A program made the translations under genes and the position numbers. The notes beneath the pieces were generated by a model that was given only the letters and a program-made list of their open reading frames with translations, was not told the origin of the DNA and did no database searches. DNA of 42,718 nt from a virus, in the IMG/VR virus record IMGVR_UViG_3300014011_000001, positions 1 to 42,718 of that record; one strand, written 5' to 3'. Shown here in pieces: positions 2,127 to 42,670 of the stretch (within the stretch, counting starts at the first letter, position 1; every line of letters starts with the position of its first letter).

Positions 2127-2280
2127 AATTTCAGGTTTTTTAAGACACCTGGAAGGAGCTGAATTTACAGATTGGCAATTCAGTGAGGATCGGACAGTAA
2201 TTAAAGCTCGTGATATTGAGGGCGATGTATACGAAATTACATTTATACCTAATCCAAAGGGAGGACAAGCCAATGAATAA
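2095..2280 (+). CDS. Hypothetical small early protein (61 aa)
   Basis: In-frame ATG 2095 preceded by GGAGAG. Co-directional with the operon. Confidence 0.45.
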   Translation: MPAISLKQADKISGFLRHLEGAEFTDWQFSEDRTVIKARDIEGDVYEITFIPNPKGGQANE

Positions 2281-2686
2281 TCAAACAAAAATCAATTTAG
2301 AAACTTTTGCAGGTGGCGCATTAGCTGAAAAAACAAATATTGAATTACAAAAAGTGATGGATAACATATTTGATCCAAACACAGATGCTACAAAAGCTCG
2401 TAAAGTAACAATTACTTTAACGCTAAAAGCAGATGAAAAACGTGAAATTATTGCAACCAATGTTGATACAAAATGCACGCTTGTAGCAGCTAAAGGTGTT
2501 GCTACAACAATGCTACTAGGTACTGATTCATCTGGAAAGGTGGTGGGACGAGAACTAGCAAGTGGATCACCTGGTCAAACTTACTTCGGTGATGATGGCA
2601 AGATACGAAATGATGAGGGTGAATTGCTAGAAGATGAAGTGAAAGTAGTTGAGGACACAGTAGTAAAGAAAGTCAAATTCCAATAA
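2273..2686 (+). CDS. Hypothetical early protein (137 aa)
   Basis: ATG 2273 preceded by GGAGG (about 2259). Starts MNNQTKINLETFAGG... No family recognised. Confidence 0.6.
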   Translation: MNNQTKINLETFAGGALAEKTNIELQKVMDNIFDPNTDATKARKVTITLTLKADEKREIIATNVDTKCTLVAAKGVATTMLLGTDSSGKVVGRELASGSPGQTYFGDDGKIRNDEGELLEDEVKVVEDTVVKKVKFQ

Positions 2687-5333: not shown

Positions 5334-5663
5334 ATGGCAAATCAAACTGTAGGATTTAATTATCATGAAAAGGTAATCACAAATTATTGCAATAGAGCCT
5401 ACGAAATTGCGAAAAGTAAAGGGTGGCATGATGAAGAAAGAGAAACAGGTACTTTGTTAGCGTTAATCCATAGTGAAGTAAGCGAAGCATTAGAAGCAGA
5501 TCGTAAAGGCGATGCAGAAAATTTTGTTGAGGAATTAGCAGATGTATGTATCCGTATTTTCGATTTATGTGGTTCTCGTAACATTGATTTAGGAAAAGCT
5601 ATAGAGTCAAAAATGCTTAAAAATGAAGGTCGTTCATATAAACATGGTGGAAAAGCCTACTGA
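5334..5663 (+). CDS. MazG-like nucleotide pyrophosphohydrolase
   Basis: 109 aa with the metal-binding acidic helices HSEVSEALEA and FVEELADVCIRIFDL, typical of the all-alpha MazG NTP-PPase fold. RBS GAAGGGAG. Confidence 0.7.
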   Translation: MANQTVGFNYHEKVITNYCNRAYEIAKSKGWHDEERETGTLLALIHSEVSEALEADRKGDAENFVEELADVCIRIFDLCGSRNIDLGKAIESKMLKNEGRSYKHGGKAY

Positions 5664-5697
5664 ACAATATGAGGAAAAAACGAAAGGGAGTTATAAA

Positions 5698-7607: not shown

Positions 7608-7633
7608 CTTAACAGAATATAAGATATGTTAAG
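7608..7633. other. Candidate dif/lox-like tyrosine-recombinase core site
   Basis: CTTAACAGAA-TATAAG-ATATGTTAAG: two 10-bp arms in inverted orientation (8/10, outer 7 perfect) around a 6-bp centre, 180 bp downstream of the recombinase gene. Confidence 0.3.
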
Positions 7634-7705
7634 GTGAGGGATACAAGAAAAACGCTGTAAAAGGCTTGTATTGCCTTTAGGAAAGAATGTTGGATGTCAC
7701 AAACA

Positions 7706-19251: not shown

Positions 19252-19403
19252 GCGACCAAGGGGGAGCTAAGGAATTTAGAAGATCCTTTTTAGTCTTGTC
19301 TGGGAACCACCATACAAGTATTGAATTTTGGCAGTCTTTAAGTTTGATTGAATTAAGGGCTTGGAGTGAAGCTGCTGCTGAGGAGGTAGACGACAATGGC
19401 TAG
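18850..19403 (+). CDS. Frameshifted chaperone fusion (gpE+E'-like), -1 shift near 19236
   Basis: The -1 frame extension reads ...GDQGGAKEFRRSFLVLSGNHHTSIEFWQSLSLIELRAWSEAAAEEVDDNG and resembles the P2 GpE' tail (...W.PS....MSL.EL..W...A). It ends at TAG 19401-19403, overlapping the tape-measure start. Confidence 0.6.
18895..18937 (+). repeat. 18-nt in-frame tandem repeat (2.4 copies) in the chaperone gene
   Basis: CAAGAGGTAGGAACAATT at 18895-18912 and 18913-18930, plus CAAGAGG. Encodes QEVGTI QEVGTI QE. Confidence 0.9.
19230..19239 (+). promoter_or_regulatory. -1 programmed ribosomal frameshift slippery sequence
   Basis: Zero-frame CGA AAT TTT TTC gives overlapping heptamers A-AAT-TTT (19230-19236) and T-TTT-TTC (19233-19239). 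The -1 frame is open from 19212 to 19403. Confidence 0.6.
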
Positions 19404-22212
19404 AAAAGCGTTGGAAATGACTATCGAAATTGGTGGCCGTGTAGCTGGAACGTTAGGAAATGCATTCCGAAGAGCAACAGGTGACATTGATGATTTGCGT
19501 AATCGATCACGACAAGCACAACGTGAACTTAATCGTTTAGGTAATGAATTTAGGCAAGGTCGTATTACGCAAGAGCAATATGCGCTAGCGACAGCTCGTA
19601 TTACTAGAGAAATGCGACAACTAGAAGGTGCTCAACGTCGTATAAAAGCTATTAGCGGTACTCTCCAAAGTGGTTTCAATACAGGCAAGGCTGTAGCTGG
19701 AATTGCTGCCATTGGAACAGCTACTGCAGTTGCAGCCACAGCAATGTCATCGCTAAATACAGCATCTGATTTCCAAGCGCAGATGGCCAAAGTTGGGGCT
19801 AAAACAGAAGCAACTAAAGAAGAAATGAAAGCCTTAAATCAAGAGGCTTTACGTTTAGGTGCGAGTTCGAGTTTATCTGCATCACAAGTAGCACTTGCAA
19901 TGGACGAGCTTGGGGCAAAAGGTTTTGACGCAACAAAAATTATTTCTGCAATGCCTGGTTTAATTGCAGCTACAGAAGCGTCAGGTGAAGATTTAGCATT
20001 AGTTTCGAACGTTGTAACATCAGCTATCAATGCCTATGGTATGGAAGCAACAGAAGCTACTCGTGTTGCTGACGTTATGGCCATGAGTGCTAATAAGACA
20101 GCTGCAGGTGTTGGGGATTTAGGATATGCATTTAAGTATGCAGCTCCAGTTGCTAATACATTGGGTATTAAGCTTGAAGAATTAGCAGCTGCAACAGGTT
20201 TGTTGGTTGATAAAGGACTCGCAGGTGAACAAGCAGGGACAGCATTGCGTATGTCTTTAATTCGACTTTCAAAGCCTCCAGCCGAGGCTGAAGCAGCATT
20301 AAAAGAATTAAACATTACAGCTACCGATTCAAAGGGTAAATTTAAAAACCTAGCTACGCTTGCAAAAGATTGGGAAAAGGCCACAGCCAAGCTTACTGAA
20401 ACGCAAAAAGTACAGTATGCAGCTACGATTTTCGGTGTTGAAGCATCTACTGCCATGTTAAGTCTATTTGGTTCAGGTCCAGAAAAAATAGATGAAATGA
20501 CGAAGGCTTTAGAGAATAGTGGTGGTGCAGCCGCAAAAACAGCCGCAATTATGAAAGATAATTACGCAGGTGCGAAAGAGCAAATGTTTGGAGCTCTCGA
20601 ATCTGCTCAAATCGCTTTAGCTACACCTTCATTAGATGTTCTAAAAGATACTATGCAAGGCTTAACTGGAATGATTGAGGACGGCATGCCAGCAATTGAG
20701 GCTGCAGGTCAAAAAATAGCAAATGGTTTACGTGATATTTTGGAGCCATTTGCTACAGTAAAGCCAGAGTTAACACCTGAAGTTCGCCATGATCCAGAAG
20801 CTTTCAAAGCGTATGAAAAAGAACTAGCGAAATTCAACCATTTTAATGGGATGGATTTTGGCGATAAAGTCATCTATATGTTGGATACTGCAACTGGAAA
20901 AATGGAGACATGGTTAGGTGGTAGTGGTGGCGAGGCAATGACACGTATTTTCTCCAAATTAGGAGAAATTGCATTTCAAGCTTGGCTAGGTGCATTTACA
21001 GGTTCGCTGAAAGCTGCAGGCAGTAACTTGATGGATGGAAATGTAGGTGGAGCAGTTGGCATGGGTGCAGCTGCTTGGATGTTAGGTGGAGGCGCTATGG
21101 TAAAAGGCGCTGTTGGTGCAGGTCGTTGGGCAGTAGGGAAAATTGGTGGACGATCCACTGCATCTGCAATGCCAGCACCTACAGTTGGCGGTTCTGCTGG
21201 AACTACACCAATGATTGGTCCATCAAGTACAGGCACAATCACAGCACATGGGCCAACAGCAACGGCATCAAGTGGTCCTACACCAATGATCGGTCCGTCA
21301 CAAACAGGTACAATCACACCGCGAGTTCCAACAGCGACAGCGACTACAGCACCGATGATTGGACCATCACAAACTGGAACGATTACACCACGTGTACCAA
21401 CAGCAACGGCATCTGCTGCTCCAGCAGCCAGAACGCTAGGAAGTATGGGTAAAGCAGCATTTTCAACGCTAGGTAAAGTAGCAAGTAAAGCTATGTTGCC
21501 TCTAACTGTAGCATCCGAAGCTATATCTATTTACAAATCAAATGACAAAGTAAAAGCAACTAGTGAATCAGCTGGCGGTCTTGCAGGTGGTCTTGGGGGC
21601 GCTAAACTTGGTGCTGCTATTGGTACAGCCATCGCACCAGGAGTCGGGACAGCGATTGGCGGCCTATTAGGTGGGGCTGTTGGTTACTTTGGTGGTAAAT
21701 GGTTAGGTGGTAAAGCAGTAGATACTGTACGTGGAGATAGTAATGCAAAAGCTTCGAGTGCGCCAGCACCTACGCCAAAAACATCAGATAAAGCAACTTC
21801 GCAGACGTTAGATACAGCTAAATTAAACACTTCCATGGCACAGCTTTCAACAACATTAGATACTGCTAATACATCATTTGCAACCATAAGTACATCATTC
21901 ACCAAGTTGCAAACAAGTGCTACTACCACTGCTGTAAACATGGATAATTTAACGATGTATTCTGGTCAAGTAAGTACAAACTTTGTCACATCGTTTTTCT
22001 CATTAAAAACATCAACAGATCTTTCAGCCTCAAACATGGCTACATTAGCATCAACGATTGGGCAAGCTAGTGGTTGGATTAGCTCTCTTTCTGGCATTCA
22101 AACGGCTGCTAATGCTGTTATATCATCATTAAATAGTTTCAAAGCTCGTATTGACAATGCACAAGTCCCAACAAGTGGTGGTGCAACATCAAGGAGGACG
22201 GCGTATGAATAG
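19396..22212 (+). CDS. Tail tape measure protein
   Basis: 938 aa, Ala/Gly-rich. The core MAKVGAKTEATKEEMKALNQEALRLGASSSLSASQVALAMDELGAKGFDA is typical of TP901-type TMP cores. There are predicted membrane-like Gly-rich segments. Confidence 0.9.
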   Translation: MARKALEMTIEIGGRVAGTLGNAFRRATGDIDDLRNRSRQAQRELNRLGNEFRQGRITQEQYALATARITREMRQLEGAQRRIKAISGTLQSGFNTGKAVAGIAAIGTATAVAATAMSSLNTASDFQAQMAKVGAKTEATKEEMKALNQEALRLGASSSLSASQVALAMDELGAKGFDATKIISAMPGLIAATEASGEDLALVSNVVTSAINAYGMEATEATRVADVMAMSANKTAAGVGDLGYAFKYAAPVANTLGIKLEELAAATGLLVDKGLAGEQAGTALRMSLIRLSKPPAEAEAALKELNITATDSKGKFKNLATLAKDWEKATAKLTETQKVQYAATIFGVEASTAMLSLFGSGPEKIDEMTKALENSGGAAAKTAAIMKDNYAGAKEQMFGALESAQIALATPSLDVLKDTMQGLTGMIEDGMPAIEAAGQKIANGLRDILEPFATVKPELTPEVRHDPEAFKAYEKELAKFNHFNGMDFGDKVIYMLDTATGKMETWLGGSGGEAMTRIFSKLGEIAFQAWLGAFTGSLKAAGSNLMDGNVGGAVGMGAAAWMLGGGAMVKGAVGAGRWAVGKIGGRSTASAMPAPTVGGSAGTTPMIGPSSTGTITAHGPTATASSGPTPMIGPSQTGTITPRVPTATATTAPMIGPSQTGTITPRVPTATASAAPAARTLGSMGKAAFSTLGKVASKAMLPLTVASEAISIYKSNDKVKATSESAGGLAGGLGGAKLGAAIGTAIAPGVGTAIGGLLGGAVGYFGGKWLGGKAVDTVRGDSNAKASSAPAPTPKTSDKATSQTLDTAKLNTSMAQLSTTLDTANTSFATISTSFTKLQTSATTTAVNMDNLTMYSGQVSTNFVTSFFSLKTSTDLSASNMATLASTIGQASGWISSLSGIQTAANAVISSLNSFKARIDNAQVPTSGGATSRRTAYE
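21208..21420 (+). repeat. Three imperfect tandem repeats (75 and 69 nt) inside the tape measure gene
   Basis: Units start at 21208, 21283 and 21352. They encode PMIGPS(S/Q)TGTIT...PTATA... three times. Confidence 0.85.
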
Positions 22213-32773: not shown

Positions 32774-33187
32774 TTATTGTTTATTTATAATTCCTAAGCG
32801 TTCCTTAATGGCGAACTGAAGTAATTGAGAAAAATTAATGTTTTCTTTTTCAGCAGCATCATTTAACCATTTAGGAATAGTTAAAGTTTTTTTAACTGCC
32901 TTATTTTCAATTTCATCTCTAATGTAATCCGTTCTTACCTCTATAATCGAGATAAAAGCTCCCTCAGGAAGTTCAATGCTGCTTGGATTTGATGCATCAG
33001 GAATTTCTTCTCCATCTTCCTCCATTCCATATAAGAAACCTACTAACACATCTTTGGCCATATATACGGCCTCATCCATATTAGAACCTTCTGTAATGCA
33101 TCCAGGTAAGTCAGGGAATGTTATTGTGAAACCTTGTTCATTGTCAGTACCTGGATCAAAAATTGCTGGAAAATAATATTTACCCAT
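32774..33187 (-). CDS. hicB: HicB-family antitoxin
   Basis: YYFPAIFDPGTDNEQGFTITFPDLPGCITEGSNMDEAVYMAKDVL is the HicB/UPF0150 fold. The C-terminal TLTIPKWLNDAAEKENINFSQLLQFAI is RHH-like. Confidence 0.9.
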   Translation of the reverse strand: MGKYYFPAIFDPGTDNEQGFTITFPDLPGCITEGSNMDEAVYMAKDVLVGFLYGMEEDGEEIPDASNPSSIELPEGAFISIIEVRTDYIRDEIENKAVKKTLTIPKWLNDAAEKENINFSQLLQFAIKERLGIINKQ

Positions 33188-33213
33188 CTATATAAAACCT
33201 CCTTGCAGGAGGA

Positions 33214-33405
33214 CTATTTAAGTCCTGCCTGCTTTAGTATTGAGTTTGTAGTGCCTAGTTTAAGGTCTTTCTTTGGATGTGGAACTGTTACAGTTCCTTT
33301 TTTAGTAGGATGTTTAAAGTGATGATGACTTCCAACTGTCCTATGTAAATACCATCCATCTTTGTTAAGTATCTTGATTATTTCTCTTGACGATATATTT
33401 TTCAT
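33214..33405 (-). CDS. hicA: HicA-family mRNA interferase toxin
   Basis: 63 aa. SSREIIKILNKDGWYLHRTVGSHHHFKHPTKKGTVTVPHPKKDLKLGTTNSILKQAGL is a canonical HicA. Confidence 0.9.
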   Translation of the reverse strand: MKNISSREIIKILNKDGWYLHRTVGSHHHFKHPTKKGTVTVPHPKKDLKLGTTNSILKQAGLK

Positions 33406-33430
33406 CTCCTTTCTATATATTTATTATAAC

Positions 33431-33447
33431 ACGTATAATTTATACGT
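33431..33447. promoter_or_regulatory. Perfect 8-1-8 palindrome in the hicA promoter region (probable HicB operator)
   Basis: ACGTATAA-T-TTATACGT, 26 nt upstream of the hicA start, overlapping TATAAT-like hexamers. Confidence 0.5.
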
Positions 33448-33556
33448 ACAATAGTTATCATTAAAATTTTCCATCTTTTTTTATCAAAAGAAACTATTGG
33501 TATATTTATAAATCACAAGTATACTTTGAATAAATATAGAATAGGAGCGATGGTGC

Positions 33557-34048
33557 ATGGTGAAAGCTTTGAATTGTCCCAACTGTGCTGCAGTATTTAA
33601 TCCAAGCAATAAATCATGTGAGTACTGTGGGAGTTATATTATTACTTCTGAAGCAAAGCAATTAACATATGATTTGAATGAGTTTAAGCCTACCTATAAA
33701 AAAATCTTTTTCCATGAAATAGAAATGGGTGCCAATGAGCTGCCGATCCGATCAGGTATGGCGAATATCTATTATAGTGCAACAAAATCTGATGGTGGCC
33801 GTTTGCTACTAACAAATCAACGTCTTATTTTTTGCGCTCATGCTCTAAACATCAATCCTAACCATTATTGGGAAATACAGATTAATGATATAGATCAGGC
33901 AGAACTAGGATTAAATCTTTTCATTTCTCAAAGAGTCAATATTTTTGATAGAACAAATATTAAAACCGTATTCGTAGTATACGGTGGCAAGCAATGGATA
34001 CATGAAATAAATAATGTCTTGAATAAAAGACCTGGAGCACTTATATAG
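33557..34048 (+). CDS. Zn-ribbon plus bacterial PH/GRAM-like (YokE-like) domain protein
   Basis: N-terminal CPNC...CEYCG zinc ribbon. The central GGRLLLTNQRLIFCAH resembles the bPH/YokE-like motif. AGGAG RBS lies 9 nt before ATG 33557. Confidence 0.6.
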   Translation: MVKALNCPNCAAVFNPSNKSCEYCGSYIITSEAKQLTYDLNEFKPTYKKIFFHEIEMGANELPIRSGMANIYYSATKSDGGRLLLTNQRLIFCAHALNINPNHYWEIQINDIDQAELGLNLFISQRVNIFDRTNIKTVFVVYGGKQWIHEINNVLNKRPGALI

Positions 34049-34066
34049 ACTGCTCCTGGTCTTTTG

Positions 34067-34687
34067 TTATTCTCTCCAATTCAAATCTATAAAGCTACTA
34101 ATAGCTTCTTTAATTCGATTCACTGGTGAACCTACTTCATCCACTACGTAGGCAAGCAAGGAAGCCCAAGAGTGATGAGATTCACCATTCTTATTTATAT
34201 ATCTCAAAATCTCTTTAAATTCTCTCATTTCCGATTCTGATAATTCATGTCGTAAGAATTCTTTTATATATGCATTTACAAATCGAGCCTCACTCATGCT
34301 AATTTCTAATAGAATTGCAGTTGCTCTTGATACTGTGCAATCTAGTGCAAAGGCCAATAAAGCAATCGCTGAATACTCACTTTGAGTAAAACGAATTGTA
34401 ACTCTTTCACCTGGTGCGTGTATACGTTTTTCAATTGTTTGATTAGTAACATGACCACGAAAAATGGTAGTGTCAAACAGCAAATCTCTTTTAAAAAATT
34501 GGGACAAGTATTCAATACTTTTTCTATCTTTAATGACCAGCATACAAAGCGATGGACAAACATCTTTAACGTGGGTGTATGTAATGTGCGATAAACGGTA
34601 AATTGCATCTTTTAAATCTAATTTTAGGGTAGGCTTTACATCACGTTTTTTATCTGAGCGTGGACCTCTTGCGCCCTTTTTTTCCAC
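34067..34687 (-). CDS. Hypothetical 206-aa protein with an HTH-like segment (GTG start)
   Basis: Long ORF with a basic N-terminus (KKGARGPRSDKKRDVKPT). LAFALDCTVSRATAILLEI looks like a helix-turn-helix. No family recognised. Confidence 0.55.
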   Translation of the reverse strand: MEKKGARGPRSDKKRDVKPTLKLDLKDAIYRLSHITYTHVKDVCPSLCMLVIKDRKSIEYLSQFFKRDLLFDTTIFRGHVTNQTIEKRIHAPGERVTIRFTQSEYSAIALLAFALDCTVSRATAILLEISMSEARFVNAYIKEFLRHELSESEMREFKEILRYINKNGESHHSWASLLAYVVDEVGSPVNRIKEAISSFIDLNWRE

Positions 34688-34719
34688 TTCCCTCGACCCC
34701 CAATAGCGATTTATTTTAA

Positions 34720-34738
34720 GGACACTGTCTTAGTGTCC
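34720..34738. promoter_or_regulatory. Perfect 7-5-7 palindrome in the leader of the 206-aa gene
   Basis: GGACACT-gtctt-AGTGTCC, 33 nt upstream (minus strand) of the GTG start. Could be an operator or a 5'-UTR hairpin. Confidence 0.4.
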
Positions 34739-34842
34739 CTAGTCCTCTTTTAATTTATGGAAAGCCACCCTTGTCCTAGAACGTATAGGAAAGTTTTTTC
34801 TTGGCCAGACTTGAAACAAATTTAGACGGGGTGATTCGATTA

Positions 34843-34971
34843 ATGAGCACTGGAGAAGAAAAAAAACTTAAGGTTATCGAAGGGGTAAAAAAACAGTCTG
34901 AACGTTATGGCTTCCCTACTTATCCAAACAAGAAAAAGAAAACAGATAAAAAAAAGAACCGAGAAAAATAA
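34843..34971 (+). CDS. Doubtful 42-aa Lys-rich ORF
   Basis: ATG 34843 after GGGGTGA. Translates MSTGEEKKLKVIEGVKKQSERYGFPTYPNKKKKTDKKKNREK. Its 3' end coincides with a minus-strand terminator, so it may be non-coding. Confidence 0.2.
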   Translation: MSTGEEKKLKVIEGVKKQSERYGFPTYPNKKKKTDKKKNREK

Positions 34972-34983
34972 TTTTTTCGGTTC
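34948..34983 (-). terminator. Minus-strand rho-independent terminator
   Basis: 12-bp stem (34956-34967 with 34972-34983, one G-U), loop AUAA, followed on the minus strand by eight U (plus-strand A-run 34948-34955). Confidence 0.55.
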
Positions 34984-35052
34984 TAAAAATTAAAATGTTT
35001 TTAGTACAAATTAAACTTAAAAATTTGAATATGTTTAGAGAAAAAATAGTAC

Positions 35053-35117
35053 CTTTTTGTATTATAGAATTTATAAATATATAGAACTTTTTGTATTAGA
35101 GAATTTATAAATATATA
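35053..35117 (+). repeat. 31-nt direct repeat, two copies, 34-nt period
   Basis: CTTTTTGTATTATAGAATTTATAAATATATA (35053-35083) and CTTTTTGTATTAGAGAATTTATAAATATATA (35087-35117), with one mismatch. Confidence 0.9.
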
Positions 35118-35264
35118 AATCTATTTTTAAAAAGGATTTTATAGCAAAAATATAGAAAATAACTAGGCAAAAGATATATGTTTTTTTATAATTTAAAAAT
35201 AAATTTTAAAAAGAGTTATAATTAAGTTCTAAAGTGGATATAATACTTTCTTTTAATCTTAGAA

Positions 35265-35294
35265 TTGACAGATTGGTCATTTAAATGATAAACT
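35265..35294 (+). promoter_or_regulatory. Sigma-A-like promoter (TTGACA, 18-nt spacer, TGaTAAACT)
   Basis: TTGACA at 35265-35270 and extended -10 TGATAAACT at 35286-35294. Confidence 0.45.
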
Positions 35295-35312
35295 AACCAT
35301 AGTTCAAAAACT

Positions 35313-35344
35313 GTGTTGACAACACTTATTTTTTCTGTTATATT
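35313..35344 (+). promoter_or_regulatory. Strong sigma-A-like promoter with palindromic -35 region
   Basis: TTGACA 35316-35321, 17-nt spacer, extended -10 TGtTATATT (35336-35344). The -35 is embedded in the perfect 13-bp palindrome GTGTTGACAACAC (35313-35325). Confidence 0.6.
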
Positions 35345-35405
35345 AACAAACTCACTTTAGAGTTTTTTCTTAAATAAGTGTGTTAGAACATAAATTTGAA
35401 ACTTA

Positions 35406-35448
35406 TTTAGAATATATTTTAGAACTATATTTAGAATATATTTTAGAA
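35406..35448 (+). repeat. Four TTTAGAA direct repeats with an exact 12-nt period (two copies of a 23-24-nt unit)
   Basis: TTTAGAA at 35406, 35418, 35430 and 35442. The unit TATTTAGAATATATTTTAGAACT is repeated at 35404-35426 and 35428-35450. More TTAGAA(C/T) copies lie at 35259, 35383 and 36201, with an inverted copy at 35225. Confidence 0.9.
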
Positions 35449-35503
35449 CTTAATAATAGACTATATACTTTTTCTTTAACAATATAATTTATTATTAAGT
35501 TGT

Positions 35504-35540
35504 AAAAAAAGCCGATTAGTTACCTCCCAATAACTAATCG
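35504..35540 (-). terminator. Rho-independent terminator of the small membrane-protein gene
   Basis: Perfect 10-bp stem CGATTAGTTA/TAACTAATCG (35513-35522 with 35531-35540), followed on the minus strand by seven U (plus-strand A-run 35504-35510). Confidence 0.75.
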
Positions 35541-35550
35541 ACCTAAGGCA

Positions 35551-35769
35551 TTACATCTTAAATTTTAAAAACACATACATGATTGTTAGCAAAATGGACA
35601 TTACTAGTGTCCAATGCATCAAGTACGAAAAAAAGTCTTTAACGCTGTGGTTTATTGAAATAAGGTTGTTGTTTATACCTGTTTGTATGTGACTGAAATA
35701 AGCGAAAAGGCAACAACCTATTACACCAAGTAGAAGCGCAATAATATCTGGAATCAACTGTTGCAGCAT
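35551..35769 (-). CDS. Small two-TM membrane protein (72 aa)
   Basis: Strong RBS GGGAGG (complement of 35778-35783) 8 nt before the ATG. Hydrophobic helices IPDIIALLLGVIGCCLFAYF and WTLVMSILLTIMYVFL. Has its own terminator. Confidence 0.65.
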   Translation of the reverse strand: MLQQLIPDIIALLLGVIGCCLFAYFSHIQTGINNNLISINHSVKDFFSYLMHWTLVMSILLTIMYVFLKFKM

Positions 35770-35953
35770 TTCTTGGACCTCCCATCTTTTTGTATAGGGA
35801 AGCTGTTATTAAATTATTGATTGTATAAATGTTTAACGTTTGACATCATTCCTATACCTTTATTTTTGGCATATACCTGTTTCCCGCCAGTTGCTTTAAT
35901 TTCACTATAAAAAGACAAATAAAATGATATAAAGCTACTATACCTAATTCACT

Positions 35954-35982
35954 ATTTTAATATGGAAAAACTAAGTTGTCAA
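35954..35982 (-). promoter_or_regulatory. Sigma-A-like promoter for the small membrane-protein gene (about 175-nt leader)
   Basis: On the minus strand: TTGACA (35982-35977), 17-nt spacer, TAAAAT (35959-35954). Confidence 0.5.
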
Positions 35983-36280
35983 ATACTGTGATAGTTTGAC
36001 ATTTTTTTAGTTGAATCAAAAGTGCATTTTTATAATGAAACTACACTTCTCCTGCTCAACTATCCACTACTATTATACGTAAATTTCTCCGCATAGCAAA
36101 AAAATAATGAGATATTTCATTCTTACTGAACTGATAGTTTTGTTTTTTTTAAGATAACCTTTTAATAAATATATTTCAACCTCTTGCGAAATTCAACAAA
36201 GTTAGAACTACTTGTCCCATATAGTTTTTCGTGGTTAAAAAATTTCTATTATCATTTAATTTTCAAGTAACTCAAAAAAA

Positions 36281-36309
36281 ACAGTAGGGTTTTATCCTGC
36301 TGTTTTTTT
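36281..36309. terminator. Bidirectional terminator-like hairpin
   Basis: ACAGTAGG pairs with CCTGCTGT (8 bp, one G-U), flanked by an upstream A-run (36274-36281) and a downstream T-run (36303-36309). Confidence 0.5.
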
Positions 36310-36432
36310 GTAGTGTATTTTGAAATAAATTGAATGTAAACGGATTACTGTATTCTATAAATCCATCGTTTTATGTACACGAAATGATAGACTATGAAAA
36401 TCTTACTCTGTGTCATATAAAAATAGCCAAAT

Positions 36433-36461
36433 TTGTCTTTTTACTCGTCCACACTTATAAT
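36433..36461 (+). promoter_or_regulatory. Promoter of the resolvase gene
   Basis: TTGTCT (36433-36438), 17-nt spacer, TATAAT (36456-36461), 40 nt upstream of the ATG. Confidence 0.5.
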
Positions 36462-36501
36462 TATATAAAACGTCTGAACGTAGACAGAAAAGAGGTATTT
36501 T

Positions 36502-37068
36502 ATGAGAATTATTGGATATGCCCGTGTCAGTACAGATGACCAAAATTTAGACATGCAACAAATGGCCATTGAAAAATACGCTACAGACAAAAAATTAGAC
36601 TTAGTTATGTATGTGGAGAAGGTATCCAGTAGGAATGACGAAAGAACAGAATTACATAATGCAATGAAAGCAGCAACTACAGGTGATCTTTTTGTTGTCT
36701 TTAAATTGGATCGGTTAGCACGTAGCACAAAGGAGTTGTATCAGCTAACTGACGAGTTAAAAAATAAAAAAGTGGACTTTGTTAGTATTAATGATGCATT
36801 TGACACATCAACGCCAACTGGACGTGCTATGTTCGGCATGCTAGCTGTATTCGCCGAGTTTGAAAGGGATATTATTCAACAACGTACAAAGGCAGGATTA
36901 GAGGCAGCAAGGAAGCGTGGACGTATTGGTGGTCGCCCTTCAGTAGATGAGAAAACAAAACGGCACATCATCACCCTTTTTAATGCTGGAGAAAGTGCAG
37001 TTGATATTGCGAAGGAATTTGGAATTGCTCGCAGTACTGTGTATAAAATCTTAAAAAATAGCAATTAA
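36502..37068 (+). CDS. Small serine recombinase (resolvase/invertase family)
   Basis: MRIIGYARVSTDDQNLDMQ with the catalytic Ser. VFKLDRLARS, FAEFERDIIQQRTKAGL, and the C-terminal HTH SAVDIAKEFGIARSTVYKIL. 188 aa. Confidence 0.95.
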   Translation: MRIIGYARVSTDDQNLDMQQMAIEKYATDKKLDLVMYVEKVSSRNDERTELHNAMKAATTGDLFVVFKLDRLARSTKELYQLTDELKNKKVDFVSINDAFDTSTPTGRAMFGMLAVFAEFERDIIQQRTKAGLEAARKRGRIGGRPSVDEKTKRHIITLFNAGESAVDIAKEFGIARSTVYKILKNSN

Positions 37069-37071
37069 GGT

Positions 37072-37080
37072 TGTGGATAA
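37072..37080 (-). promoter_or_regulatory. Consensus DnaA box (TTATCCACA on the minus strand)
   Basis: The plus strand reads TGTGGATAA, a perfect 9-mer. Confidence 0.6.
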
Positions 37081-37101
37081 CTATTTTTTTACTATTTTTC
37101 C

Positions 37102-37130
37102 TTGCAAAACTTATCCACAAAGTTTATCAT
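37102..37130 (+). promoter_or_regulatory. Putative rep promoter
   Basis: TTGCAA (37102-37107), 17-nt spacer, TATCAT (37125-37130). Would give a leader of about 290 nt. Confidence 0.4.
37111..37119 (+). promoter_or_regulatory. Consensus DnaA box (TTATCCACA)
   Basis: Perfect 9-mer, 30 nt from the inverted partner, inside the spacer of the putative rep promoter. An A-rich tract follows. Confidence 0.6.
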
Positions 37131-37162
37131 TCTATTTAACAAATAAATGAACGGAAAAAAGC

Positions 37163-37268
37163 AAAAAAAAAGAAATCGAGCTTCACAGCTAATTTGAAGG
37201 GACGGCAATCCCTAAAAACGCTCGACTCGATTTCCCAACCATGTGTTTACGCCACATCGGTTTGATAC
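37163..37268 (-). ncRNA. Candidate countertranscript (antisense RNA) to the rep leader
   Basis: Minus-strand terminator: closing stem GAAATCGAG/CTCGATTTC (37172-37180 with 37226-37234) encloses sub-hairpins CTTCA/TGAAG and AGGGA/TCCCT and is followed by nine U (plus-strand A-run 37163-37171). No minus-strand gene nearby could use it. The 5' end is uncertain: best -10 is TATAAT at 37280-37275 with a poor -35. Confidence 0.35.
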
Positions 37269-37311
37269 GCTTATATTATATGTTATTGAGCATAAATGCA
37301 ACCATTTTGGC

Positions 37312-37333
37312 ACAAATAATTTATATTATTTGT
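37312..37333. promoter_or_regulatory. Perfect 9-4-9 inverted repeat in the rep leader
   Basis: ACAAATAAT-ttat-ATTATTTGT. Could be an operator or an RNA hairpin. Confidence 0.5.
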
Positions 37334-37356
37334 CAAAAGCATTTTCATGGCATTAA

Positions 37357-37405
37357 AGCATCTATCAACCTTTGACAACACATTGGTCTGATAGATGCTT
37401 TTTTC
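37357..37405 (+). terminator. Intrinsic terminator immediately upstream of the rep RBS (attenuator candidate)
   Basis: Perfect 11-bp stem AGCATCTATCA/TGATAGATGCT (37357-37367 with 37389-37399), followed by TTTTTTC. The RBS AAAAGGAG and ATG 37429 follow within 25 nt. Confidence 0.7.
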
Positions 37406-37428
37406 GTTTCCAAAAGGAGCGAATACAT

Positions 37429-38208
37429 ATGACATTGCCAGCAACTCATTATACATATCAATATCTACAACCCTTCAAATCTAAAGAGCAATTAAACGCA
37501 AATACAATTGCCATCCGTAAACAATTCAACGATATTTTTAAACCTGCCACAAAGAAAGTTTTAGATTTCTTACATACTCATGCATGTAAATTTTTTGGGG
37601 TATGTTACATGTCAAAAAGCAAAATTGCCAAACAACTAGAATTACATCGATCCACAGTGATACGTGCTTGTGAACAATTAGAGGCATTAGGCATTATTGT
37701 TCAGTACGATACAAAACGTGTGAATGGTGATAAAAGACAGTCTACGAATGCGATTGTTTTTGTGCATCAATTAGCAGCTAAAGAAGCTTTTATAGAAAAT
37801 GCGACACCAGAATGCGACACCGTAGATACTCTTTTAGATACTCCTATTCTTTTAAATAATACAGATGACACAGAAGAACCTGCTAAAAAAGAAGTTGAAA
37901 AATCGCTTTTAAAAGAAGGACTAAAAGCGAAACTACCTGAAACATTGGGTCAAGTATTATCACCATTTTTTGATGCTAATGAAATGTATGAAGTGGTTGG
38001 TACGATTTATAAAGCCAAAGCATCTGTAGATAAAGGAATTAGAATTGAGGATCATGCAAGTGTCTATTATACAAACATTCTTTCAGTCATAAATGCCTGG
38101 GGACGTGGGAAAGCAAAATCACTTCATGGAGTTATGTATAAAGCTATCCAAAATGTTACTCGTACCATTTGGTTAAAAGAGCGAACTAATTCTTATTTCG
38201 GTTTTTAA
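37429..38208 (+). CDS. Plasmid-type replication initiator candidate (winged-HTH protein, 259 aa)
   Basis: ATG 37429 after AAAAGGAG. wHTH-like MSKSKIAKQLELHRSTVIRACEQLEALGIIVQYDTKR. Context: DnaA boxes upstream, partition genes downstream. Family not identified by eye. Confidence 0.6.
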   Translation: MTLPATHYTYQYLQPFKSKEQLNANTIAIRKQFNDIFKPATKKVLDFLHTHACKFFGVCYMSKSKIAKQLELHRSTVIRACEQLEALGIIVQYDTKRVNGDKRQSTNAIVFVHQLAAKEAFIENATPECDTVDTLLDTPILLNNTDDTEEPAKKEVEKSLLKEGLKAKLPETLGQVLSPFFDANEMYEVVGTIYKAKASVDKGIRIEDHASVYYTNILSVINAWGRGKAKSLHGVMYKAIQNVTRTIWLKERTNSYFGF

Positions 38209-38212
38209 TTCA

Positions 38213-38362
38213 AAATGAAGGCATAATAACTTCATTTCAAGAATATATATTAAAAATGATATACATATACTTTCAAAATGAAAGCAAAATGATTTCATTT
38301 TAGCTGTACATTTTAATTTTGTTGGTATATAATTTCATTATGAAAGCAAAATGATTTCATTT
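38213..38362. repeat. Three AATGAA-N-TTCATT palindromic repeats upstream of parM (centromere/operator candidate)
   Basis: AAATGAAGGCATAATAACTTCATTT (38213-38237). The exact 23-mer ATGAAAGCAAAATGATTTCATTT occurs at 38278-38300 and 38340-38362. A TATAAT (38328-38333) lies between copies. Confidence 0.7.
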
Positions 38363-38375
38363 AGGAGGAATAAGA

Positions 38376-39566
38376 ATGAAGTACAGATTAGCTGCAGATG
38401 TAGGAAACTCATCAACAAAAGCTATTATTAGACCACTGGATGACAATGCTAAACCAAAAGCATTAAAGCAAAAAACGTTAATATCTCCAAGTATTACAGT
38501 ACCACCAATGGTTGAAGAAGATTTAGAAACATCAATCAATAATCTTACAAACAACATGATCGTTCATATCAACAGCAAGGCTTTAAAAAGAGCTAGTACA
38601 TTTGCTGTTGGTGAAAAAGCAACATCCGTAGGACGAGTAAAACGCAATATGAACATTGCTATTGGCGATAAACATACAAATGATATACCTGTTGTTATGG
38701 TACTGTCTCTAATAGCATCTAAAGCAGTTCAAGATCACTACAGCATAAATAAGACACTTCCAAAAGATATTGATGTATCTGTGGAGTATTCTACAGCTTT
38801 GCCAGCTCGTGAGTATGATCCTTCAGTTGCACGAGTGTATGAACAACGTTTACTGGAAGAAGTACACATTGTTGATATTTATGTAAATGGAACACCTGTG
38901 ACTGTGCGTGTGAATTTTGAAAAAGTAAAAGTTGCACAAGAGGGTGTGCCTGCTGTATATGCGATAATCGAAGGCGGAGAAAAGTTGTTGTCTGAATACC
39001 ACAATAAATATGGTAGTAAGTCCGCCAACAAGGACTTTGAAAAGAAGAAACTATTACTTGTTGATATTGGTGATGGCACAACTGAATTTATTTATGTAGC
39101 TAGTGGTAAACCGATAAACGATTTATGTGATGGAAAACGTTTTGGAGTAGGTCATGCAGCTGATGTAGCTAAAAATCTGTTTGATGAAGATGTAAAAGTG
39201 CAAATTACAATGACTCGTCAACAATTTATGCAAGTTGTACTTGATAAAGAGCACCATTTCCACGATGCAGCCGTAGATGCTATGAATCAAGCTAACGTAG
39301 AGCAAGCTGAGTTAATCTTAGAACAAATTCAAGACATGGTTTTAAATACGCTATCTGGTAATGTGGATGACATTGTTGTATTTGGTGGTGGATCGGCTGC
39401 GTTTAAAGAAGATATGTATCAAACGCTAATCGAGTTCACAGAGTCAGTGGGAGCACGTACATTATGGATTCCAGAAGATAAAGCACCATCATTAAACGCA
39501 ATTGGATTGGATATTCTAAATGAAAAAGTGTTTTTCAAGGGAGTTGTAGTAGGTAATGGAGAATAG
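38376..39566 (+). CDS. parM: Actin-like plasmid segregation ATPase (ParM/Alp family)
   Basis: Actin-fold motifs: phosphate-1 LAADVGNSSTK, phosphate-2 LLLVDIGDGTTEF, adenosine IVVFGGGSA. 396 aa. GGAGG RBS. Confidence 0.85.
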   Translation: MKYRLAADVGNSSTKAIIRPLDDNAKPKALKQKTLISPSITVPPMVEEDLETSINNLTNNMIVHINSKALKRASTFAVGEKATSVGRVKRNMNIAIGDKHTNDIPVVMVLSLIASKAVQDHYSINKTLPKDIDVSVEYSTALPAREYDPSVARVYEQRLLEEVHIVDIYVNGTPVTVRVNFEKVKVAQEGVPAVYAIIEGGEKLLSEYHNKYGSKSANKDFEKKKLLLVDIGDGTTEFIYVASGKPINDLCDGKRFGVGHAADVAKNLFDEDVKVQITMTRQQFMQVVLDKEHHFHDAAVDAMNQANVEQAELILEQIQDMVLNTLSGNVDDIVVFGGGSAAFKEDMYQTLIEFTESVGARTLWIPEDKAPSLNAIGLDILNEKVFFKGVVVGNGE

Positions 39567-41297: not shown

Positions 41298-41326
41298 TTG
41301 ACATTGCCTGATAGTTATCATATTAT
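41298..41326 (+). promoter_or_regulatory. Early rightward promoter (PR-like)
   Basis: TTGACA (41298-41303), 17-nt spacer, TATTAT (41321-41326). Confidence 0.7.
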
Positions 41327-41334
41327 GGAGTAAA

Positions 41335-41348
41335 TCGCACATATGCGA
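41335..41348. promoter_or_regulatory. Operator copy 3 (TCGCACATATGCGA)
   Basis: Perfect arms, located between the -10 and the cro RBS. Confidence 0.65.
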
Positions 41349-41367
41349 CAAAAAGGAGGGAGAGAAA

Positions 41368-41586
41368 ATGCCAGATATTAACCTACTTAAAGAAAAAATA
41401 GCAGATTGTGGGCTAGATATGGGTAAACTCGCTAAAAAGATGGGTATGGACCGAAGCACACTATACAGAAAACTTAATAATCAAGGGGAAAAGCTCACTG
41501 TTGGCGACTTGAAAAACATAAAACGCATATTAAATCTATCAAAGGATGAATCTATGCGTATTTTTTTTGACAACTTTGTCGCATAG
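41368..41586 (+). CDS. Cro-like HTH regulator (72 aa)
   Basis: AAAGGAGGG RBS. HTH GKLAKKMGMDRSTLYRKLN. Divergent from the CI-like gene. Confidence 0.75.
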   Translation: MPDINLLKEKIADCGLDMGKLAKKMGMDRSTLYRKLNNQGEKLTVGDLKNIKRILNLSKDESMRIFFDNFVA

Positions 41587-41592
41587 ATGCGA
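41579..41592. promoter_or_regulatory. Operator copy 4 (TCGCATAGATGCGA) within the 22-bp palindrome TTTGTCGCATAGATGCGACAAA
   Basis: Same 14-bp motif overlapping the cro stop codon (TAG 41584-41586). The extended palindrome spans 41575-41596. Confidence 0.55.
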
Positions 41593-41626
41593 CAAATATG
41601 ATTGTTAATAGAAAGTAGGTGTTAAT

Positions 41627-41860: not shown

Positions 41861-42670
41861 ATGAATTTACTAATCAACGAGCCTCCACTTCAAGTCCTAC
41901 CTAGCCTAGCAGTTAAGGTTGGGCTGAATGAGGCAATCATCTTACAGCAACTGCACTACAGGCTGTTGATCTCAACAAATATTTATGATGGCCATAAATG
42001 GGTGTTTAATACATACCAAAAATGGCATAAGGAGTTCCCTTTTTTATCTGAACGAACAATACAAAGAGTCTTTTTGGATCTTGAAGCAGATGGCTATATT
42101 GTCTCAACAGATAAATACAACAAATTTCGTGCAGATAAAACAAAATGGTACCGAATTGACTATTCAAAACTTGGTTATGAAGCCACACGACAAGTTGGCA
42201 CTAGCGACACGACAAATTGGCATGAGGGAAATGCCAAAAAGGCCTGCCCTGATGACGCAAATTTGGCAGAGCTAGATCACGACAAATCGGCACTAGCAAT
42301 AACCAAAGATATTAAGAGTAATAAGAATAATAATGTTGAGTTGTCACTCAACGTTGAAATTATTAACTACTTAAATCAAAAAGCGAATAAACATTTCAAG
42401 CCAAATTCAACTGCTACAAAAAAACTTATCAACGCAAGATTGCGTGATGGCTATACCATGGAGCAATTTAAACAAGTCATTGATCTAAAAGTAAAGCAGT
42501 GGTCAAACAATCCAGATATGCAGAACTATTTACGACCAAGCACTTTGTTCAATGCCACTAATTTTGAAAATTACTGTAATGAGGTGCCAATAAAGCAATC
42601 AAGTAATACCCAAGTACAAACATCCAAGTTACAACGACCACAACTTAATTTTGGAGTGGATGATGAATGA
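41861..42670 (+). CDS. Phage replication organizer / DnaD-domain protein
   Basis: N-terminal LPSLAVKVGLNEAIILQQLHYRL plus wHTH. The C-terminal INYLNQKANKHFKPNSTATKKLINARLRDGYTMEQFKQVIDLKVKQWSNNPDMQNYLRPSTLFNATNFENY is the conserved DnaD-like phage C-terminal domain. The stop overlaps the helicase start. Confidence 0.8.
   Translation: MNLLINEPPLQVLPSLAVKVGLNEAIILQQLHYRLLISTNIYDGHKWVFNTYQKWHKEFPFLSERTIQRVFLDLEADGYIVSTDKYNKFRADKTKWYRIDYSKLGYEATRQVGTSDTTNWHEGNAKKACPDDANLAELDHDKSALAITKDIKSNKNNNVELSLNVEIINYLNQKANKHFKPNSTATKKLINARLRDGYTMEQFKQVIDLKVKQWSNNPDMQNYLRPSTLFNATNFENYCNEVPIKQSSNTQVQTSKLQRPQLNFGVDDE

Follow-up and report, generated by a model that had tools for sequence, protein, structure and literature searches.

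A variable cargo cassette with a small membrane-protein gene and predicted convergent promoters in a Lysinibacillus phage-plasmid

Which function should be assigned to an AT-rich, gene-poor stretch of 1.8 kb that lies directly upstream of a serine resolvase gene in an otherwise gene-dense element? This question is raised by positions 34688-36501 of the virus record IMGVR_UViG_3300014011_000001, which has been analysed at its full length of 42,718 nucleotides (the 42.7-kb window). The window is the complete contig of a Lysinibacillus phage-plasmid, and its closest public relative is the L. capsici plasmid pFN9C. An earlier sequence-only reading had treated the 1.8 kb as a single element and had proposed for it an iteron origin, a second centromere, a protein-binding regulatory array or a small RNA locus. 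The comparative data have split the stretch into three parts, revealing a composite of a conserved left part, a cargo cassette and a conserved right part. Judged from the comparison of relatives, the central part is very probably a variable cargo cassette that serves neither as origin nor as centromere. It is moderately probable that this cassette is an antisense-controlled moron similar to toxin-antitoxin (TA) systems of type I, the term moron being used, as in lambdoid phages, for promoter-gene-terminator cassettes located between conserved phage genes.

Three-part structure and the variable slot

The three parts of the stretch are the following:

34688-34971: left conserved backbone, with a divergent promoter/operator region and a gene of 42 amino acids (aa).
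34973-36350: strain-specific cargo cassette of ~1.38 kb, with 24.8% GC.
36351-36501, plus strand: conserved upstream region of the resolvase gene.

The comparison set included pFN9C (L001), PB300 (L002), one Logan contig (L003) and four sequences (L009, L010, L011 and L012) fetched through the family of the 206-aa protein encoded at the left border of the stretch (335 homologues, all of them 'hypothetical'). In the five relatives with a long enough contig (L001, L009, L010, L011 and L012) similarity covers the 206-aa gene and the intergenic region, continues into the 42-aa gene and is lost at 34952-34972, where the stop codon of the latter is reached or nearly reached; the PB300 contig runs out just beyond 34942. 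Homology resumes at 36351/36352 in L009 (98.6% identity) and L012 (90%), and at 37053 in L010 and pFN9C, both of which carry another resolvase allele. Between these limits the content of the slot varies from one element to another: ~165 bp in pFN9C, ~224 bp in L010, an insert of ~0.8-0.9 kb in L009 with a different 42-aa open reading frame (ORF; 2205-2333, minus strand) followed by a strong terminator, and ~1.2-1.4 kb in L012 with a small ORF predicted to have two transmembrane (TM) segments (5531-5692) and a Cys-rich ORF. A two-TM ORF of ~54-58 aa is present in L012 and also in L011 (97-273). Other occupants of the slot are small hydrophobic ORFs as well, and the slot seems to be a collector of small membrane-protein genes.

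The 1.38-kb insert of the window was found in one other assembly only, L003, which differs from the window within 34160-36202 only by a 1-nt deletion and by the lack of exactly one 12-nt unit, and whose flanks are ~10% divergent. Neither blastn nor tblastn found a match to the cassette, as DNA or protein, in 72,556 plasmids and 50,697 phages, and megablast/blastn searches with the whole region or the cassette against phages and plasmids returned pFN9C only, by its conserved flanks only. Scans of genome and viral contigs with the 206-aa protein gave the PB300 contig only, which ends 88 nt into the slot, and exact-pattern scans with a 20-mer of the 12-nt array and a 19-mer of the P2 palindrome (both described below) gave chance matches only, in coding or otherwise unrelated sequence. 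The AT-rich character that had been reported for the stretch was confirmed, since the cassette has 24.8% GC against ~37% in the genome, with a trough of 17% in 35001-35500. This stop and resumption of homology, together with the variable contents and the lack of matches, identifies 34973-36350 as a strain-specific cargo cassette in a hypervariable slot. The features of moron or accessory cargo are all found: its own promoter-gene-terminator unit, variable presence at a fixed site and deviant GC content.

One piece of the cassette is shared with another slot:

36144-36215, minus strand: promoter-like module of 72 nt (TTGAAA-17-TATCTT), 86% identical to L009 2396-2467.

Its orientation is reversed in L009, and in both elements it lies upstream of a (different) small ORF. 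It gives the impression of a promoter piece that is portable within the slot. Two further candidate features of the cassette borders were discarded. The long inverted repeats near its ends (34990-35023 and 36146-36179, 74% complementary) are at the level estimated for chance in such AT-rich DNA, and the 10-mer GTCTGAACGT common to 34896 and 36472 is also at chance level, its left copy being coding sequence.

The same natural variants bear on the proposal of an iteron origin or a second partition centromere. The AT-richness (17% GC), the direct repeats and the location within 2 kb of rep and parMR speak for such a role. Against it, L009 is 98.6% identical to the window over 36352-38300, which covers res, resolvase, Rep and the start of parC, and it has none of the repeats, and L012, 90% identical over 36351-38300 including Rep, lacks the 34-nt and 12-nt repeats. 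The slots of L010 and pFN9C measure ~165-225 bp only, and two cassettes that are otherwise identical differ in their number of 12-nt units. Better candidates for both functions are located elsewhere in the window, as follows:

36502-37068: serine resolvase of 188 aa, with domains Resolvase and HTH_7.
37069-37371: resolvase-rep intergenic stretch, likely the plasmid-mode origin.
37372-38208: winged helix-turn-helix (wHTH) Rep-like protein of the plasmid module.
38202-38362: three palindromic repeats (AAATGAAAGCAAAATGATTTCATTT, 25-36 nt, spaced 62-63 bp) directly upstream of parM.
38376-39566: actin-like ParM of the plasmid module, with a small gene downstream.
41861-42670: lytic initiator gene (phrog_428, DnaD-like).

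Only two perfect DnaA boxes (TTATCCACA) are present in the window, at 37072-37080 (minus strand) and 37111-37119 (plus strand), facing each other within the intergenic stretch between resolvase and rep, for which 91% conservation with pFN9C was found. The array at 38202-38362, with a fourth, degenerate copy of AAATGAAAGCAAAATGATTTCATTT at 38109, within the end of rep, resembles a parC-type centromere, and its sequence is unrelated to the TAGAAY and 34-nt repeats of the cassette. In addition, three direct repeats of 20-22 nt (CACGACAARTTGGCAC...) at 42181-42297, inside the lytic initiator gene, look like the iterons of a lambda-O-style origin within the gene. Given the variants that lack the repeats, and the DnaA boxes and parC-like array elsewhere, an origin or centromere role of the 1.8 kb has been rejected as hardly credible, and the likely plasmid origin and the centromere are placed outside it.

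The conserved right part contains one further element:

36433-36461, plus strand: conserved promoter TTGTCT-17-TATAAT, upstream of the resolvase gene.

All four sequences compared, and all relatives with the resolvase allele of the window, can be aligned from ATTCTATAAATCC at 36353, and the independent recombination junctions of L003, L009 and L012 fall within 36351-36380. By analogy with the Tn3 and Sin families, it is here, ~150 bp upstream of the gene, that the crossover site I of res would be expected. Neither a clear three-subsite architecture nor a common 12-bp half-site could be read in 36351-36501, and it is by its position that this region is assigned as probable res site. The coincidence of the right cassette boundary with the resolvase upstream region fits an exchange of cassettes by recombination at or near res. 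The comparison thus delimits, in Lysinibacillus and Sporosarcina phage-plasmids, a cargo hotspot that begins at the stop codon of the 42-aa gene, reaches the edge of the resolvase upstream region and is relevant to the acquisition of accessory genes by phage-plasmids.

The 72-aa gene and predicted antisense transcription

The elements recognised in the cassette, in the order of their discussion, are the following:

35551-35769, minus strand: gene of an orphan small membrane protein of 72 aa, with the Shine-Dalgarno (SD) sequence GGGAGG 8 nt before the ATG.
35982..35954, minus strand: predicted promoter P72, TTGACA-17-TAAAAT.
35770-35982, minus strand: P72 promoter and leader, the latter of ~176 nt.
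35509-35544, minus strand: intrinsic terminator of the 72-aa gene, with 16 pairs and a U7 tail.
35265-35294, plus strand: predicted promoter P1, TTGACA-18-TGaTAAACT, 10/12 with TG; predicted start ~35301.
35316-35344, plus strand: predicted promoter P2, TTGACA-17-TGtTATATT, 11/12 with extended -10; predicted start ~35351.
35351-36310, plus strand: predicted non-coding antisense transcript from P2, spanning the whole 72-aa gene and its promoter.
36279-36310, plus strand favoured: strong terminator at the right edge of the cassette, -20.6 (plus) against -13.5 (minus) kcal/mol, with A/U runs on both sides.

The previous view that the stretch holds only one convincing ORF, and that none of the annotated genes explains it, did not hold. 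A Shine-Dalgarno scan gives exactly two SD-led ORFs, of 72 and 42 aa, and the 72-aa gene with its control elements covers most of the cassette. Two stretches of the 72-aa protein, residues 2-28 and 49-70, are hydrophobic, and its polar loop (H..G..NN.LS..HSVK.FF.YL.HW) is conserved. Its homologues have 60-75 aa and are 63%, 38% and 39% identical to it. An exhaustive profile search among 1.84 billion proteins found three other cluster representatives (four with the window's own), and word-indexed protein searches found two proteins; the loci compared for this family are those of the window, L004, L005 and L006. When the gene is compared with that of L004, 16 codons are identical, 23 differ synonymously and 23 non-synonymously, a pattern that shows the ORF to be a real gene under purifying selection. 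No credible Pfam, PHROG, NCBIfam or PADLOC match was obtained for the protein or its homologues, tblastn of the protein against plasmids and phages gave no match, and no relatives of the family were found in the scanned viral and metagenome contigs.

The gene is closed by a terminator whose predicted stability is clearly higher on its own strand (-18.5 kcal/mol minus against -10.7 plus). The stem of this terminator (GTCGATTAGTTA...TAACTAATCGRC) is retained in L004 and L005 despite the divergence of the proteins (63% and 38% identity), which hints at a constraint on the 3' overlap region. It is one of three terminator hairpins noticed previously, all of which were confirmed: that at 34957-34987 has a U tail on the minus strand only, that at 35509-35544 serves the minus strand, and that at 36279-36310 has U/A runs on both sides. 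Another hairpin that had been flagged as terminator, at 35595-35613, has not been counted because it lies inside the 72-aa ORF, where the conserved HWTL codons dictate half of its sequence. Its minus-strand sequence GGACACTAGTAATGTCC resembles the operator palindrome GGACACTGTCTTAGTGTCC of the left flank, with a spacer of 3 nt instead of 5 nt; since the codons force half of it, this likeness is probably a coincidence. At the other end of the transcription unit, a hairpin at the end of the leader (35777-35803) pairs CUUCCCU with the SD sequence GGGAGG in the predicted fold. Two leader motifs are common to the window and L004, and SD-sequestering hairpins are also predicted in L005 and L006, with z-scores that are not significant.

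The four loci of the family share a common layout, with a predicted sense promoter of 10-12/12, a leader of 145-176 nt, the small ORF and a terminator. A convergent promoter of at least 10/12 is located 75-160 nt past the terminator in 4/4 loci (combined p = 0.008 against dinucleotide shuffles of each 220-nt downstream stretch), and in all four the antisense strand scores higher than the sense strand. In the window this position is occupied by P1 and P2, the tandem plus-strand promoters already described in the sequence-only reading, which are present at 35265-35294 and 35316-35344; the -35 box of P2 lies, as also reported, inside a perfect 13-bp palindrome (GTGTTGACAACAC, 35313-35325). Only three sites in the whole window reach at least 11/12 of the sigma-A consensus, namely P2, P72 and an early promoter by the CI-like repressor gene.

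According to the Shine-Dalgarno scan, no SD-led ORF lies downstream of P1/P2, and an ORF of 35 aa across the 12-nt array (35380-35487) has been rejected as coding because it has no SD. The first ~200 nt of the predicted P2 RNA (35351-35548) fold into four hairpins (z = -6.0 for the plus strand, compared with -4.5 for the minus strand). Downstream of P2, the first solid terminator of the plus strand is that at 36279-36310, which is preceded by no plus-strand gene; a weak candidate was found at 35976-36008. With this sole solid terminator downstream, a non-coding RNA of 0.66-0.96 kb is predicted, antisense to the entire 72-aa transcription unit. An antisense RNA from P1/P2 is therefore plausible, and the proposal of a small RNA locus is retained to this extent: a long antisense RNA with a structured 5' part and no SD-led ORF can be postulated, and no short RNA can be delimited. 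A one-mismatch sequence similar to a LexA box (TAACCATAGTTC, 35294-35305) was also observed over the predicted start of P1, just upstream of the -35 box of P2. It is the only one-mismatch match to LexA (Cheo) boxes in the region, and the window-wide number of such matches (13 against 12.6 expected) corresponds to chance.

The layout of the cassette matches that of the prophage-borne type I TA systems of Bacillus subtilis, and for this reason a silencing of the membrane protein by P1/P2 is proposed. The cassette would be a horizontally exchanged unit in the hypervariable slot immediately upstream of the probable res site, with terminators at both ends as its insulation. P72 would direct the synthesis of an mRNA composed of the 176-nt leader and the coding sequence of the 72-aa membrane protein, ending at the 35509-35544 terminator. 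P1 and P2, located 160-250 nt beyond this terminator, would fire in the opposite direction and give a structured non-coding RNA extending to 36279-36310. This antisense transcription would keep the membrane protein off by transcriptional interference, by duplex-dependent decay of the mRNA or by both, and the module, with a potentially toxic protein, may serve maintenance of the phage-plasmid or exclusion. The AT-rich repeats (34-nt pair, 12-nt array and TAGAAY copies) would belong to the control region of P1/P2 and to the 5' portion of the antisense RNA; they are prone to slippage, and they would be dispensable for replication and partition.

Repeats, alternative explanations and flanking genes

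The repeats that had first drawn attention to the stretch were confirmed in number and position. The 31-nt repeat at a 34-nt period is a tandem pair at 35053-35120 with copies that are 91-97% identical, each of which contains the near-palindrome AATTTATAAATA and which lie in the AT-rich stretch upstream of P1/P2. TTTAGAA occurs four times at an exact period of 12 nt (35406, 35418, 35430 and 35442), and the 10-bp inverted repeat was recovered at 35322-35331 and 35372-35381. The further TTAGAA(C/T) copies are also real, since TAGAAY is found eight times on the plus strand and twice on the minus strand of 34972-35510 against ~1 expected, and eight plus-strand copies were reached in 0/2000 shuffles. 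The larger repeats are listed below:

35406-35453: 12-nt tandem array TTTAGAATATAT / TTTAGAACTATA, four copies.
35441-35466 / 35482-35507: 26-nt inverted repeat (23/26), a long AU hairpin adjoining the terminator.
35217-35233 / 35442-35458: 17-nt inverted repeat (16/17), bracketing P1/P2.

The copy number of the 12-nt array is polymorphic, with one unit fewer in L003. The score of the 26-nt inverted repeat is above that of all 40 shuffles, and that of the 17-nt repeat is borderline, being reached in 2/40 shuffles; the left arm of the former is also the right arm of the latter. The elements ACTTATTT and TTATWATTAAGTTSTAAA (the latter of 18 nt) are present in three copies each, in direct-inverted-direct order; like the 12-nt array and the 26-nt inverted repeat, they are located either in the P1/P2 region or in the 5' portion of its predicted transcript. 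No RNA structure signal was detected in 34990-35260 on either strand (z = +0.4 and +1.1). Intrinsic DNA curvature was considered for the same segment and discarded, since the AA/TT periodicity near 10.5-11.5 bp is only marginal.

Several observations weigh against antisense control of the 72-aa gene. All promoters and transcripts are predictions from sequence, and promoter-like hexamers are common in AT-rich DNA (23 against 16 expected in 3.2 kb). No discrete RNA of antitoxin size can be defined, as a plus-strand terminator is lacking both within the 72-aa ORF and just beyond it, and on this strand the hairpin at 35509-35544 is devoid of a U tail. No significant complementarity to the leader exists in the portion of the antisense RNA that does not overlap the mRNA. 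The SD hairpins cannot be distinguished statistically from those of shuffles, and the local fold of L004 contains none. Apart from the terminator hairpin, the putative antisense RNAs of L004-L006 show no significant structure, and since the repeat arrays do not occur in these three loci, they are not a conserved part of the module. No match to the Rfam 15 covariance models at E <= 1 was found in 33000-38000. As the sole relative of the cassette, L003, is near-identical, it provides no covariation information. Finally, the 72-aa protein differs from type I toxins by its larger size, its two hydrophobic segments and its conserved polar loop. A dispersed complementarity of the Fst/par type between the 5' antisense part and the mRNA leader was also tried and rejected, being no better than in shuffles in the window, L004 and L005.

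In another explanation, which is considered unlikely, the cassette would be an ordinary moron whose accessory gene has its own promoter and terminator and no antisense regulation (acting, for instance, in immunity or in superinfection exclusion, or as a holin-like protein or antiholin), and the repeats, palindromes and 'promoters' would be non-functional leftovers of repeated cassette exchange and replication slippage. The mosaic contents of the slot point in this direction, including the 72-nt piece that recurs inverted in L009, and so does the array copy number, which varies between otherwise identical cassettes as unconstrained slippage predicts. The absence of the arrays from the other three family loci, the lack of structural signal and the marginal bending periodicity in 34990-35260 and the frequency of promoter-like matches in AT-rich DNA also agree with it, and the conserved polar loop of the protein is more suggestive of a specific partner than of a generic pore-forming peptide. 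On the other hand, P2 (11/12, extended -10) equals the best promoters of the genome, the convergent promoter occurs in all four loci with the p value given above, a strong terminator that favours the plus strand closes a stretch without any plus-strand gene, and no shuffle equalled either the 26-nt inverted repeat or the fold of the predicted P2 RNA.

The TAGAAY copies could have a different meaning, which requires consideration of the left conserved part. Its features are the following:

34067-34687, minus strand: 206-aa 'hypothetical' protein.
34688-34842: divergent promoter/operator region between the 206-aa gene (minus strand) and the 42-aa gene (plus strand).
34720-34738: palindrome GGACACTGTCTTAGTGTCC, with a TGTCCYTAG-type subsite.
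34771-34784: block TTGTCCTAGAACGT, with a TGTCCYTAG-type subsite.
34843-34971, plus strand: Lys-rich 42-aa gene (MSTGEEKKLKVIEGVKKQSERYGFPTYPNKKKKTDKKKNREK), with the SD sequence GGTGA 8 nt before the ATG.
34957-34987, minus strand: hairpin terminator with a U8 tail at the left edge of the cassette.

The 42-aa gene has orthologues in L001, L002, L005 and L009-L012, and its first 31 codons show 9-12 synonymous against 5-7 non-synonymous codon differences with relatives; by this comparison it is shown to be a real gene. The 335 homologues of the 206-aa protein are found on Lysinibacillus and Sporosarcina plasmids and phage-plasmids, always with a Lys-rich gene of 40-42 aa; L005 is a Rep and ParM plasmid that carries the same gene pair, with products of 208 and 40 aa. 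No family library gives a name to the 206-aa protein, which had been described as similar to helix-turn-helix (HTH) proteins and is now predicted to have a tandem ribbon-helix-helix (RHH) fold instead. Its AlphaFold model (pLDDT 79.8) contains two beta-alpha-alpha units followed by a helical C-terminal domain, and the best structural matches are the E, F and G chains of cryo-EM entries of the F-plasmid relaxosome (9f0x, 9f0y and related), with a probability of ~1, a target TM-score of 0.6-0.74 and weak E-values of 0.01-0.2. These chains are not named in the search output and we take them to be TraY; on this model the 206-aa protein is a probable TraY-like tandem RHH DNA binder.

In an alignment of eight loci, two blocks of the intergenic region are nearly invariant, TAGGACAsTGTCTTAGTGTCCCTAGTCCTCT and CCTTGTCCTAGAACGT, and the core TTGTCCTAG-AC is invariant in 8/8 sequences, including the distant plasmid L005. 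The TGTCCYTAG-type subsites are likely operators of the divergent promoters, and the adjacent 206-aa tandem RHH protein would be the most likely one to bind them. At the other end of this part, the hairpin at 34957-34987 has -12.1 kcal/mol on the minus strand, where it is followed by UUUUUUUU, and -15.7 kcal/mol on the plus strand, without U tail; the relatives have a different hairpin at this position. With a U8 tail on the minus strand only, the hairpin would terminate minus-strand transcripts that read out of the cassette towards the 42-aa gene.

The TAGAAY/TTAGAAY copies might themselves be operators, bound by a backbone-encoded protein such as the 206-aa RHH protein or by a host protein, that switch P1/P2 and thereby the membrane protein. 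This explanation is compatible with an antisense-controlled cassette and is considered rather improbable. RHH proteins of the omega, ParG, CopG and TraY families typically bind arrays of short repeats, and the copy numbers are in agreement with such a role (eight plus-strand TAGAAY against ~1 expected and ten copies in 34972-35510), as are their positions, since some copies abut the -35 box of P1, others cover +33 to +100 of P2, and the 17-nt inverted repeats bracket the promoters. Moreover, 8/21 TAGAAC copies of the window lie within 34777-36208, including those at 34777, inside the conserved TTGTCCTAGAACGT block by the RHH gene, and at 36203. Against these points, four copies, half of those of the array, derive from a single tandem duplication, the period of 12 nt is off the helical repeat, the common word measures 6 nt only, and the conserved operators are of the TGTCCYTAG type, which does not recur in the array. 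In addition, TAGAAC is not enriched in relatives whose RHH proteins are 85-90% identical, and no regulator is encoded in the cassette. The clustering of TAGAAC and the copy in the operator block leave the TAGAAY sites as possible binding sites, and good support for a protein-binding regulatory role is confined to the conserved block at 34718-34784.

The 17-nt inverted repeats suggest still another arrangement, in which the adjacent serine recombinase would flip the 208-bp P1/P2 segment between 35217-35233 and 35442-35458. In one orientation the promoters would silence the 72-aa gene, and in the other they would fire leftwards and be stopped at 34957-34987, so that the cassette would be a recombinase-switched module similar to type I TA, toggling the silencing of a toxic or exclusion membrane protein; both the invertible segment and this module are regarded as very unlikely. 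In support, the 16/17 repeat brackets both promoters, the recombinase matches phrog_125 'DNA invertase' (2e-64), the minus-strand terminator at 34957-34987 has no obvious gene to serve and the 72-nt module is inverted in L009. Conversely, a score of 16/17 is reached in 2/40 shuffles (probability ~0.05), the window and L003, which are independent assemblies, have the same orientation, the arms lack an internal dyad of the hix/gix type, the recombinase gene lies at a distance of 1 kb and is preceded by a conserved upstream region of its own, and L009 and L012, with the recombinase allele of the window, do not have such a switch.

In the rest of the window, the DnaB-like helicase and the lytic initiator meet across the contig ends, and structural genes, a lysis cassette, HicAB, and XRE-type and LexA/CI-like repressors are encoded; no tRNA or tmRNA was found in the window by ARAGORN. 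Between the lysis genes and the 1.8 kb, a HicB-like antitoxin (137 aa, phrog_497) with an upstream ORF of 63 aa, probably HicA, forms a type II TA pair (32774-33405, minus strand). The CI/Cro-type switch of the element is located at 40.5-41.6 kb; the third promoter of 11/12 (41298-41326), an early promoter, adjoins the gene of the CI/LexA-like repressor, and the palindrome TCGCAnAnATGCGACAAA, present twice, at 41335 and 41579 (41298-41357 and 41579-41601), probably provides the operators of this repressor. A local GC spike (51.6% in 21001-21500 against ~37-40% nearby) lies inside an ORF of 938 aa (19396-22212). In several relatives, a YhjD-family gene that is lacking in the window adjoins the 206-aa gene, and it is preceded by the conserved sequence TTTAGAAC(A/G)NA(T/C)GTTT (L005 4527-4545; L011 ~2480-2500; L012 ~7620-7640), which resembles the Bacillus LexA (Cheo) box GAAC-N4-GTTY and suggests SOS control of the YhjD gene.

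Comparison with known systems

The probable res site can be compared with those of other small serine resolvases, such as Tn3/gamma-delta, Sin and the beta recombinase. The likeness concerns 36351-36501 only, i.e. a conserved segment of 150 bp upstream of the resolvase gene that overlaps a promoter and has recombination junctions at its distal end. The AT-rich repeat arrays, in contrast, are 0.9-1.5 kb away from the resolvase gene and are not conserved with it.

As in phage morons, the cassette is an autonomous unit that is present, absent or replaced at a fixed site and that has a deviant base composition. It differs from them in its strong convergent promoter pair and in the terminators on both sides, and its slot abuts the resolvase res region instead of lying between late genes.

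Convergent promoters also operate in the pR/pL switch of coliphage 186 and in prgQ/prgX of pCF10. The cassette shares with these switches two strong predicted promoters placed face to face ~600 nt apart, with transcripts that would overlap completely, an arrangement that allows both interference and antisense pairing. Unlike them, one arm is non-coding, no regulator gene is present in the cassette, and nothing connects the cassette with the lysis-lysogeny decision.

The closest parallel to the proposed mechanism is given by the type I TA systems of B. subtilis (txpA/RatA, bsrG/SR4, bsrE/SR5 and yonT/SR6), which are often borne by prophages (PMC6562991). Their toxins are small hydrophobic membrane peptides, usually of less than 60 aa and with one TM helix, and the antitoxin RNAs pair with the 3' end of the toxin mRNA, whose SD is sequestered (PMC6562991). 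The cassette resembles these systems in the small hydrophobic membrane protein carried by a mobile element of Bacillales, in the predicted convergent promoters with RNAs overlapping from the 3' end and a strong antisense promoter, in the long structured leader with an SD that is predicted to be paired, and in a plausible role in the maintenance of the mobile element. It differs in that there is no sequence, Rfam or Pfam relation to known toxins or antitoxins and in that, in place of a discrete antitoxin of 100-220 nt, an antisense RNA of ~0.66-0.96 kb is predicted to cover the gene and its promoter. These findings are not very surprising to the specialist. If antisense control is true, an orphan family with four cluster representatives joins the antisense-controlled small membrane proteins of Bacillales mobile elements, as an unusual member with two hydrophobic segments and an antisense RNA over the whole gene.

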